Part shown: positions 42,509 to 58,302 of the stretch, in pieces
Layout: each line of letters starts with the position of its first letter
Position numbering within the stretch: position 1 is the stretch's first letter
Position numbers and translations under genes: made by a program
The notes under the pieces: model-generated
Told to the model about the DNA's origin: nothing
Database searches by the model: none
Seen by the model: the letters and a program-made list of their open reading frames with translations, nothing else
Assembly: GCA_020724845.1 (NCBI GenBank)
Contig: DYGE01000001.1
Coordinates: 58,218 to 122,217, forward strand
Source: Candidatus Paceibacter sp.
Lineage (GTDB): Bacteria; Patescibacteriota; Minisyncoccia; UBA6257; 02-FULL-45-10c
Direction: 5' to 3'
Length of the DNA: 64,000 nucleotides

Positions 42509-43279
42509 TTATCTCGGCGCCCACATTAAGATATCTAATGACGATTCAGGGATAGCGCCGTATTGATTTATAACAGATCGAATCGCTTTTAACCGCGCGA
42601 AAACCTGGTTAACCGCTCCTCTTTCTAAAAGCTCCGTGAGTAATTCGTCTAACAGGTCTCGCATCTTCTGATCCAGCGCTAACCCGTTTATCTTCTCTTT
42701 CAGATCTTCTGGGACAGGTAGGTCAAGCACGCCTTTATATTCAAATTCCCTTGGAACATAGTCCCAGACAAAACTATGCCCGTGATCAATCGCGTAAATT
42801 TGGTTGCCTTTAAGCAGGTAGTTATTAAAACCCCGATCCGTATTGCCGATTATGTAGTCAAATATGCAAAGCTTCAGTATTTCTTCTTTCGGTATATTTT
42901 CGCGACCTTTGCGGCCAAGCTGCATAGGCAGCAAAGAGTTTTCAACAAATTGCTGTAAGCTTCCAAGCTTTCCGGATATTGACCTTATAATAGTCGGCGG
43001 CACGAAATTGAAACCAAGAAAGCGATCTACCAGATAAGCCGCCCGCTCGTTGCCAATGAATTTAATCCTGTCTCCGTAGTCCTGGTGAGTGTGCGGCTTA
43101 AATACCCCTAGGCCATCGTTCTTCAATTTCACTAATTCCGCGTCGCCGGTAAATCCGCCAAGCAATTCAACGGTTCTTTCTACTTCTCTGCTTTGCAAAA
43201 TTTCTTCCTCCGGAGACGCGAATTGAGTCGGGGTTTCCCGATGATATGACTCTTTTTTTGAAGCAGTTTCAAATGCCAT
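42509..43279 (-). CDS. PI3K/PI4K-like kinase-fold protein
   Basis: Catalytic-loop-like IGNTDRGFNNYLL and activation-loop-like AIDHGHSF (compare PI3K GDRHxxN / IDFGH); upstream Lys region VFKPHT. Confidence 0.55.
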   Translation of the reverse strand: MAFETASKKESYHRETPTQFASPEEEILQSREVERTVELLGGFTGDAELVKLKNDGLGVFKPHTHQDYGDRIKFIGNERAAYLVDRFLGFNFVPPTIIRSISGKLGSLQQFVENSLLPMQLGRKGRENIPKEEILKLCIFDYIIGNTDRGFNNYLLKGNQIYAIDHGHSFVWDYVPREFEYKGVLDLPVPEDLKEKINGLALDQKMRDLLDELLTELLERGAVNQVFARLKAIRSVINQYGAIPESSLDILMWAPR

Positions 43280-54861: not shown

Positions 54862-57800
54862 TTACCTGGCTAACGGGCTTAATAGGCGAATTATATCTTC
54901 GCGCCTTTGGGAAAGCGCCTTCTTCAAATAAGGCGCTTCCCCGCCTGACTTTATCGCCGCTGAATAAGTTTCAACAGCATCTAGAAGCTTTGCTCTATCT
55001 CGGTAACTAGCTTCTCCGATTGATAATATGGCTCTCAATTCGGAAATCCTTTCTGTCAAATCGCGTGTTGAATCTTCACCGTCCTTGAAGCCGGCAGATG
55101 TAATAATCTCATCAATAAAAGCGTCATCAATATCTTCCAATTTTTTAAGCATTTTTTGGAGAAGAATCTGGTTTTTAACTATTACCCTCCCCTCTCTAAC
55201 TTCCAAAAGATTATGATAGGCCTCATTGACCGGCTTCCCGGCGAATTGAGGGTTAGCCAAAACCTCTTGCAGTTGAGAAATTCCAAAATGCTCCGGGAAA
55301 CCCTTATATCCGCCCCTTGCTCTGGAAAATAAACTAGCTCCATTATCAATAAAAGCAACTTTGTCTCCTTTAAACATCAAATTCCAAGCCGTTCGGTCAT
55401 ATTGGCCAAGTAGGGCGTCTACCAAAAGGCCTTCCTGAATTTTTTGATTCTGGTGATGTTCTTCCGGCAATGTCAGGCCGCCTTCCTTCCAGCCCTCCAA
55501 AAGCTCCATTTTTAATTTCGGCACCCTTTCAATGGCCACTAAGTCAGTTTTGGGAGTAAGAAGTCCGGCTCTTTCAAGAAATTTCTGCCCGACAAAATCA
55601 GCTTGTACGGTATGGCGCGGACCGCCTTTCAACAAGAATTTTTTGCCTTTCTTATCTTCCCAAAGCTGAAGACGATGAGTGCCAATATAATTACCCCGGA
55701 ATTCCTGAATAAATTTCAATCCCTCAAGCGGATTTTGACTATTAATTCTTATCCGCTGTTCCGGGTCAAGTTTGGGGGAGAAATTTCGCATAACCGCGTG
55801 CTCTACCGTCCAGGCAAGCAGTTGTTGATCTATAGATTTTGGTTTACTTTCCGGTTTTAATTTGCCTTTTTCGTCTAGAATAAAAAGTGCGGGCTTATAG
55901 ATACTCTTTGGACGACCCTCTAAGAAATCCAATTCTCTTGATGGCCCTGAATCTCTAAGCCGACGGGACAATTCTTTTCGGGTCGGATTGCTGGAAGAAA
56001 ATAACATGATTTTTTCATCAACCTCTTGCGAGGATATCCCAATGCCTCCAGTCTCTGCCAAAGATCTTATAGCGAACTCCGGTATTGAGCCAGCATATCC
56101 GGTATCAATAAAAGCAAATTCCAAACCGACTCCATTTTCCTTGAGATACCGGGCTACCTTACTTTGATTCTTTTGGGACGCCATAGATCTAGTCACTACT
56201 ACATATTTTAACTCTTTTCTTTTTAACCCGATTTCATTGGCTTTGATGGCTGTAAAGAAATACCGGCCATCGCGTCCAAAAACCGCCAACTTTTCTGCTC
56301 CGAAATCTTCCAACTTTTCTTTGGCTTCCCAATAAAGCGGCACGTCCTTCTCCTCCACACTTTTATACATTTGCAAATTCTCCTGGTAATGACCAATAAT
56401 TTCTTGTAATTTTTCAAAATACGAATCAGGATACGATTTATCATCACGATTAGCCAGATCTTGGGCAAGGTAATAGCGGATTTTTTCCGCTAAAAGAGTG
56501 CGGAAATCCGGGATCTGCCTACTTCTTTTAAGGGTTGGATGATAAAGCAAAAAAGGATTAGCGCTTTCTGGCATATCTAGAGGCGTTTCCCACCGTACTC
56601 TTTCAATGAAATCTACAAGCTTATCTAGATTTAAGGCGAGATGGGCGATTGATTGCCCGTCTGGAGTCTCTGAATCTACTGACCTACCTAGGAAATACTG
56701 CAGAGCCCTAATTTCACTTATGGCGTTTTCCGGGCGATTTTCCAGAGACGCCAGCGACAACGCTCTCGCGTATGATAGAGCAGCCATGCCGTACGCTTCT
56801 TCATAATTCACCTCTTCCGGAAGATTAGATTCTAAATCCTTCTCCTCCATTACCCCGAAAAGAAAATTTAAATAACTGTCAACATTTTCAAATCCGGCGT
56901 TACGCCTAGAGATAATTCCAAAAAGACCGGCTAAATAATTTTCCGGGGTCAATACTACCCCTTTTTCAAGCTTCGGAGTAAAGCGTCCATAGAAATTTAT
57001 TAACTTCCCAGCTTCCCAGGCGCTTGACGACGGTTGGGGTATAGGAGGTAAAATGGGACCTTCGTCAAAATCGTCATAGTCACCGTCATAGTTAAAGCCA
57101 TAGCCATCGTCATAGACATCATCTTCGCCCATGTCTTCAGCAGGCATATTTTCTACTTCTTTTCTCAACTCCTCCAACCTATTTTTTTCAACGGATTCCT
57201 CAAATTCCTCAAATTCTGGTTTTTCTTCGCTTAAAGTTTCGTTCCAGGAAGATATCGTTTTTGACAGTATTGCAAGCCATCCAGAAAATTCCGGATTATT
57301 TTCAGCCGTCTCCACTAAAACTTTTTTTGCTTCTTCTGTCCCTAATATGCCCGCAAGCGCGGAGGCTGCCACGCGTAAATCGCTATCTAGGTGCATCTTA
57401 CGCGCGTAGTCTTCGGTAACCGCATTATTAATAAACTGGACTATAGCCGGAGCCAAGCTCGGATCTTTTGATCTTCTTAATAATTCTAAAATTTGATGTA
57501 GATTGCTGCCATCAACGTTATCCAAAATAGCTGGTTTTTCTAGAATAGTTGCCGCAAATTTTGCTGAATCTTTGTAGCCGAGGCTAAGGTAGAGGTTAAT
57601 ATACCAATAAATCCCCTCGCCCCTTGATGATGCTGCTGAGTTAATTTTCTTCTCAAAAAACTGCTTAAACGCTGGCCCTGCCTTTTTCATATCAAACCAA
57701 TACTCTCGCTCGACCAAATAAAGGTTCTTACCGCCTTGCGCTCTAGAAAATTTATTTAAAAAAGCTCTATAACTTGTGTAATCTTCCCAAGCAAATCCAG

Positions 57801-57930
57801 TTCCGGAAGAGGAGAGTAGAATCTCAATCCTTCCCTGTAGCAAATCCTCAAACTTCTGCTTTTCTTCCGGAGAAAGCCCCAGTTCAGATTCCCGCTTAGG
57901 CGCTTTATCAAATTTTTCCCTGACCTCCAT
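54862..57930 (-). CDS. Large multidomain protein: N-terminal HEAT-like repeats, acidic linker, C-terminal PI3K/PI4K-like kinase-fold domain
   Basis: 1022 aa. C-terminus LLGQYDRTAWNLMF and AFIDNGASLF align with the 256-aa protein at 42509..43279 and resemble the PI3K catalytic DRHxxN and DFG loops. N-terminal helical repeats are HEAT-like. Confidence 0.6.
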   Translation of the reverse strand: MEVREKFDKAPKRESELGLSPEEKQKFEDLLQGRIEILLSSSGTGFAWEDYTSYRAFLNKFSRAQGGKNLYLVEREYWFDMKKAGPAFKQFFEKKINSAASSRGEGIYWYINLYLSLGYKDSAKFAATILEKPAILDNVDGSNLHQILELLRRSKDPSLAPAIVQFINNAVTEDYARKMHLDSDLRVAASALAGILGTEEAKKVLVETAENNPEFSGWLAILSKTISSWNETLSEEKPEFEEFEESVEKNRLEELRKEVENMPAEDMGEDDVYDDGYGFNYDGDYDDFDEGPILPPIPQPSSSAWEAGKLINFYGRFTPKLEKGVVLTPENYLAGLFGIISRRNAGFENVDSYLNFLFGVMEEKDLESNLPEEVNYEEAYGMAALSYARALSLASLENRPENAISEIRALQYFLGRSVDSETPDGQSIAHLALNLDKLVDFIERVRWETPLDMPESANPFLLYHPTLKRSRQIPDFRTLLAEKIRYYLAQDLANRDDKSYPDSYFEKLQEIIGHYQENLQMYKSVEEKDVPLYWEAKEKLEDFGAEKLAVFGRDGRYFFTAIKANEIGLKRKELKYVVVTRSMASQKNQSKVARYLKENGVGLEFAFIDTGYAGSIPEFAIRSLAETGGIGISSQEVDEKIMLFSSSNPTRKELSRRLRDSGPSRELDFLEGRPKSIYKPALFILDEKGKLKPESKPKSIDQQLLAWTVEHAVMRNFSPKLDPEQRIRINSQNPLEGLKFIQEFRGNYIGTHRLQLWEDKKGKKFLLKGGPRHTVQADFVGQKFLERAGLLTPKTDLVAIERVPKLKMELLEGWKEGGLTLPEEHHQNQKIQEGLLVDALLGQYDRTAWNLMFKGDKVAFIDNGASLFSRARGGYKGFPEHFGISQLQEVLANPQFAGKPVNEAYHNLLEVREGRVIVKNQILLQKMLKKLEDIDDAFIDEIITSAGFKDGEDSTRDLTERISELRAILSIGEASYRDRAKLLDAVETYSAAIKSGGEAPYLKKALSQRREDIIRLLSPLAR

Positions 57931-57937
57931 AAGCCGA

Positions 57938-58302
57938 TTACTTTAAATAAGATTTTATCTTGCTGATAACCTGTTTCATGGAAAAATTCGCTTTTACCAT
58001 GTAGTCGTCAGCCCCCAAGTCCATCGCTCTTTTAACGTCGGCATCCTGGCCGAGATTGGATAAAACAAGTACCGGAATATTTTTCCATGCCTCACCGGCT
58101 TTTATTTCCTTCAAGAAATCAAAACCGTTTTTTGATGGAAGCATTAAATCAAGTAAAATAAGATCGAAGGAATCGCCCATCACCTTTCCCGTCATAAGCA
58201 ATATCAACCTCAAAACCCTCCCGCTCCAAGGCGGTTTTATAAACCATCACCAAATATTTATCATCTTCCACCAAGAGAATCCTCTTTTTTTCTTTTGCCA
58301 TA
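57938..58302 (-). pseudogene. CheY-like receiver domain gene interrupted by a frameshift
   Basis: Frame A MAKEKKRILLVEDDKYLVMVYKTALEREGFEVDIAYDGK then stops. Frame +1 continues SFDLILLDLMLP...DYMVK through the rest of the receiver. The switch is at a GGGAAAGG run near 58190. Confidence 0.5.

Follow-up and report, generated by a model that had tools for sequence, protein, structure and literature searches.

What does the 1022-aa open reading frame at 54862..57930 encode, and is the frame-broken receiver gene next to it connected with its function? The initial annotation located this reading frame, which is present as claimed, and read it as HEAT-like repeats followed by a PI3K/PI4K-like kinase, that is, the layout of the eukaryotic PIKKs. 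CPR/Patescibacteria genomes contain many large proteins without annotation. Here, sequence searches against Pfam, NCBIfam and the PDB with the whole protein, five segments, 18 family members and three profiles returned nothing significant, the lone exception being a weak match to 7shg. Because the profile libraries name no part of the protein, the assignments given below rest wholly on predicted structure and remote profiles. The window, i.e. the whole 64-kb stretch of DNA that was analysed, contains the following features of interest:

54862..57930, minus strand: whole 1022-aa open reading frame, intact over 1022 codons
57145..57885, minus strand: N-terminal all-helical domain, residues ~16-262 (AlphaFold2 model)
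57019..57144, minus strand: acidic, predicted-disordered linker, residues ~263-304, DDGYGFNYDGDYDDFDE (pLDDT, alignment gaps)
56455..57018, minus strand: second helical region, residues ~305-492 (invariant motifs and helical model)
55762..56454, minus strand: gPRT/CriT-like PRPP-type phosphoribosyltransferase module, residues 493-723 (motifs, model, remote profile)
55246..55734, minus strand: atypical protein-kinase-like catalytic core, residues ~733-895 (motifs, structural matches)
54865..55245, minus strand: C-terminal helical extension of the kinase, residues ~896-1022 (alignment invariants, model)
57938..58301, minus strand: single-domain CheY-like receiver with one extra base that breaks its frame (Response_reg HMM)
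42509..43279, minus strand: stand-alone 256-aa PI3_PI4_kinase-family (SCO1664-like) protein (PF00454, profile alignment)

The 1022-aa protein is a new architecture assembled from known folds, in an unannotated family whose members are ~1000-1100 aa long. This family is rare and restricted to CPR bacteria: among 185,579 species representatives, only 12 loci were found, all of them (12/12) in CPR MAGs and patchily distributed. Homologues at 31-50% identity are still full length, while the gene is fragmented into 2-3 ORFs in three MAGs (L005, L010 and L016). The GC content of the gene is like that of its surroundings, its sequence is identical in two assemblies (window and Logan), and neither a transmembrane segment nor a signal-peptide-like N-terminus was found in the protein sequence. 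It is flanked by the receiver remnant and a Na+/H+ exchanger.

Comparison of the predicted structure with the PDB revealed a bilobal protein-kinase-like fold of the C-terminal domain, closest to HipA/CtkA and with CtkA, HipA, HipT and CotH as the best structural matches. All three kinase-like motifs named in the initial annotation occur at the places given there, namely KFLLKGG at residues 764-770, LLGQYDRTAWNLMF with YDRTAWN at 844-850, and AFIDNGAS at 859-866. They supply the catalytic set of K768 (β3 lysine), D845 and N850 (catalytic loop) and D862-N-G864 (DFG equivalent); K768, D845, N850 and D862 are nearly invariant in 168 domain matches. In addition, the core carries a family-specific SRARGG.KGF motif, and the C-terminal extension, modelled with a pLDDT of 82-95 and covered by most strong matches of the domain profile, has conserved VNEAY and GGEA.YLKKAL motifs. 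Curated profiles were less informative: PF00454 gave no match at E ≤10 on the full protein or the isolated C-terminal domain and reached at best E 0.013 among 18 family members, and the HipA_C and HipA_2 profiles did not match the 1022-aa protein. Altogether, the structural matches, the remote profile and the intact catalytic residues support the proposed PI3K/PI4K/HipA-type atypical kinase fold.

Identity of this domain to CtkA (Ser/Thr kinase jhp940 of Helicobacter pylori; PDB 3AKJ/3AKK) and to the HipA/HipT toxin kinases is only 12-16%. The protein has neither the N-terminal subdomain of HipA nor a HipB/HipS partner. Compared with CtkA, HipA and HipT, the kinase domain is embedded in a multidomain protein and adds a 125-aa helical tail with GGEA.YLKK as well as the conserved SRARGG loop. 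The PI3K/PI4K kinases (PF00454), especially type II PI4K (PDB 4PLA/4HND), form another close system, but the protein stays below the PF00454 threshold, and a lipid as candidate substrate is unsupported. The domain belongs to an unnamed but widespread family with 334 cluster representatives, found with sugar-nucleotide and PRPP enzymes. In its closer relatives (E <1e-25), it is joined to housekeeping enzymes for sugars and nucleotides. For example, fusions with Inositol_P, Epimerase/GDP-Man dehydratase, CTP_transf_like and ADK occur among the relatives, and one protein of 4246 aa contains UDP-glucose dehydrogenase, GT2, PRPP synthetase and carbohydrate phosphorylase. Weaker relatives co-occur with ART-PolyVal, Phage_Mu_F (MuF) and NUDIX, and the domain is also found in giant proteins of 2-6.6 kaa, one of which has a 2H-SAK domain.

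The 256-aa protein, previously regarded as a paralogue, scores above the gathering threshold of PF00454 (PI3_PI4_kinase; 35.6 versus 27.1 bits, E 1.2e-8), with weaker matches to HipA_2 and TIGR03843 (SCO1664 family). BLASTP against the 1022-aa protein yielded 30% identity over 44 aa (E 6e-4), and a profile of 146 C-terminal domain sequences aligned to it over 89 columns (E 1.9e-6, probability 89.7%); applied to the six-frame translation of the window, the same profile matched these two ORFs only. Judged from these alignments, the motif-for-motif likeness exceeds chance. With only ~90 alignable residues in common, the two proteins are remote relatives but not close paralogues.

Directly N-terminal to the kinase, the predicted structure shows a PRTase-like α/β core most similar to CriT/7SHG. 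The full-length AlphaFold2 model was poor and unusable at residues 530-750; a good model was obtained with the module alone and a broader alignment of 16 sequences only. The module contains the motifs G552-R553-D554, T580-R581, D609-T-G611-Y-A-G614-S615 and E671, which align to those of 7shg_A in a weak sequence match, and 18 family members all share R553, D554, D609, G611, G614 and E671. All PRPP-binding loops of the gPRT/CriT type are present, for which S-R-D in loop 1, S/R in loop 2, and E/D with a Gly-rich 5-phosphate loop closing on T/S in loop 3 are characteristic. In CriT, PRPP is bound by S678-R679-D680, S707/R708 and E818...T825, and the mutants D680A and E818A have reduced activity (PMC10299916). 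The three motifs of the module correspond to these PRPP-binding motifs, and its two acidic ribose ligands are on different loops as in CriT, not in an adjacent DD pair. Type I nucleotide PRTases (HGPRT, XGPRT, UPRT, OPRT) show much weaker similarity to the module, which has no Pribosyltran Pfam match. The pattern 'GRDG ... DxGxxGS', at first presumed to be that of a HAD-like hydrolase (COG5610), was reassigned, since both fold and motifs agree with the gPRT/PRTase portion of 7SHG/Bcs3 rather than with its HAD portion.

Identity to CriT of Bcs3 (Hib capsule polymerase, PDB 8A0C) and to the gPRT of the Thermobacillus composti ribofuranosyltransferase (PDB 7SHG) is 13-14%, and judging from motif spacing, the HB-2 helical-bundle insertion located between loops 2 and 3 of CriT is apparently absent. 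Prototypical gPRT enzymes are bipartite, consisting of gPRT and PRP, and sit in polysaccharide gene clusters (PMC11127046). In contrast to CriT and 7SHG, the module described here is fused to a kinase or duplicated and has no polysaccharide-cluster context; it also lacks the HAD phosphoribose-phosphatase partner (PRP/CrpP) of the prototypes, with no HAD domain found by Pfam in the 1022-aa protein or among conserved neighbours. The kinase follows the helical region and the module in this protein and in most of its relatives. In the family members P0004-6, a second copy of the module takes the place of the kinase, and stand-alone CPR proteins of ~300 aa, which have no Pfam match, consist of the module; both arrangements mark it as the core of the family. 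The gene context of one stand-alone module gene was uninformative.

The remaining N-terminal part only partly agrees with the HEAT/ARM repeats proposed earlier. Its first ~260 aa are confidently all-helical in the AlphaFold2 model, but neither a Pfam HEAT match nor any internal repeat was detectable in the 1022-aa protein, and no homology of the N-terminal domain or the second helical region to the HEAT_2-containing regions of P0058 and P0063 was found. The modelled fold is solenoid-like or bundle-like, not demonstrably HEAT. The acidic linker reported before is indeed present, as DDGYGFNYDGDYDDFDE within residues ~265-313; AlphaFold2 models residues 265-313 as disordered (pLDDT <50), and length and sequence of this gap-rich part of the family alignment vary among homologues. 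The second helical region carries the family-invariant motifs NFYGRF, PxSA..F and DFRTLLAEKIR, with R316, F317, A457, F460, F476, L479, L480 and E482 invariant in 18 members. By analogy with the helical bundles of CriT (PMC10299916), this region and the transferase core after it probably make up a single unit.

How close does this layout come to that of the PIKKs (TOR, ATM, ATR, DNA-PKcs)? The likeness is confined to the general order of a helical N-terminal part followed by a kinase related to the PI3K superfamily. Unlike PIKKs, the protein has a phosphoribosyltransferase domain between helices and kinase, so that a PRTase-like α/β fold lies where PIKKs have FAT, and it ends in a family-specific helical tail where PIKKs have FATC. 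Neither FAT nor FATC was matched by Pfam in the protein and its family members. No PIKK is among the top structural matches, and DNA-PK FATKIN reached a Foldseek probability of 0.10. The protein is not a PIKK.

The frame-broken CheY-like receiver upstream is real, but its proposed role is not borne out. An intact receiver of ~115-120 aa, with acidic pocket, phospho-Asp, Thr/Ser and Lys, is not present as is; instead, the PF00072 domain is split over two frames, with 58149..58301 covering Response_reg HMM positions 1-32 and 57938..58213 covering positions 38-110. The break lies at GGGAAAGG (58183..58190), and once one G is deleted, the 120-aa translation covers Response_reg positions 1-110 of 111 with 71.6 bits and keeps all receiver signature residues, which rules out a larger deletion removing helix α2. 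An independently made assembly (Logan, SRR5011275) agrees here at 100% identity and shows the same frame break. Judged by its sequence, GGGAAAGG is an unlikely site of programmed frameshifting or phase variation, as a +1 shift would be needed, no slow or stop codon is present, and single-base runs reach only 3 nt. Runs of this length are too short for slipped-strand phase variation. The receiver stop codon lies 7 nt upstream of the ATG of the 1022-aa gene. None of at least 12 homologous loci has a receiver nearby. The adjacency therefore looks incidental, with the receiver a chance neighbour and not a regulator, which speaks against a signalling module, decayed or phase-variable, with the 1022-aa protein as its output.

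Taken as a whole, the 1022-aa gene probably encodes a soluble multidomain enzyme, in which a helical region is joined to a gPRT/CriT module and an atypical kinase of the CtkA/HipA/CotH/PI4K-II group, and which would act on a sugar, a polyol or an envelope glycan. The transferase would move ribose-5-phosphate from PRPP to a hydroxyl acceptor, and the kinase would use ATP to phosphorylate that same substrate or one next to it. A cell-envelope sugar, polyol or glycan is the likeliest substrate, given that the transferase is structurally closest to polysaccharide enzymes and that the kinase domain is elsewhere fused to sugar-nucleotide and PRPP-making enzymes. A point against the glycan reading is that known gPRTs pair with a HAD phosphatase in polysaccharide clusters, both absent at this locus; likewise, no glycosyltransferase or ABC-transporter genes adjoin the gene or occur in the conserved neighbourhoods. 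A PRPP synthetase gene was sought in the 64-kb window and not found. A protein or nucleic-acid target is conceivable as well, because CtkA, HipA and CotH, which match the kinase best, are protein kinases, and because weaker relatives occur in phage-type proteins with MuF and ART-PolyVal.

Such a target is central to the strongest alternative, a conflict or effector protein in which a HipA/CtkA-like kinase and a ribosyl-transferring enzyme modify host, competitor or phage proteins or nucleic acids, similar to the kinase and ADP-ribosyltransferase of phage and conjugative 'polyvalent proteins'. The toxin and effector kinases CtkA, HipA and HipT as top structural matches, the weaker relatives with ART-PolyVal, Phage_Mu_F and NUDIX, the giant proteins including the one with 2H-SAK, and the patchy, partly fragmented occurrence of the gene all point in this direction, as does a conserved protein with a Pol-β-type nucleotidyltransferase domain encoded downstream at 5 family loci. 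However, the locus lacks small antitoxin-like genes and mobile-element genes as well as a HipA N-subdomain, MuF and a secretion signal, its composition is like the surrounding genome, the closer kinase relatives are fused to housekeeping enzymes, and the transferase has strong structural relatives only among enzymes acting on glycans. Moreover, the kinase of polyvalent proteins is of Ser/Thr/Tyr type without a C-lobe (PMC5512222) and does not obviously correspond to the present domain. On balance, we consider an effector role rather unlikely.

It is very improbable that the protein is a non-catalytic scaffold with pseudoenzyme domains, or that the locus is degenerating along with the receiver. 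The frameshift next door, the fragmented orthologues and the lack of curated family matches would fit such decay, but the ORF is unbroken and the same in both assemblies, family members show little or no variation at the catalytic residues of either domain, and homologues at 31-50% identity stay full length. A bacterial PIKK-like protein (HEAT solenoid and PI3K-like kinase) acting as output of a two-component module with a decayed or phase-variable receiver is, finally, largely refuted by the above findings and barely credible, which removes a tempting 'bacterial PIKK' headline.

For the favoured multidomain enzyme, these results assign two concrete, testable catalytic modules to one unannotated CPR family and to stand-alone proteins of ~300 aa. 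PRPP-dependent glycan phosphoribosyltransferases were recognised as late as 2022-2023 and, to our knowledge, have so far been connected with the synthesis of capsules and O-antigens, where a phosphatase partner is obligatory. A gPRT without phosphatase that is fused to a kinase or duplicated would broaden this enzyme class and suggest an unknown ribose-phosphate-containing product in episymbiotic bacteria. As a more speculative and tentative extension, the protein might be an unrecognised CPR-specific bifunctional enzyme, whose phosphatase-less gPRT would leave ribose-5-phosphate on the product and be coupled to the atypical kinase, either building or decorating a phosphate-rich, ribose-containing envelope polymer or phosphoribosylating and phosphorylating a protein target. 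In bacteria of minimal metabolism, PRPP would then gain a new role as the donor with which macromolecules are modified. In some genomes, it might work with the downstream nucleotidyltransferase-domain protein, the gene for which was sought in the 64-kb window and not found. At one of the family loci (L001 or L002), this conserved partner is 462 aa long.

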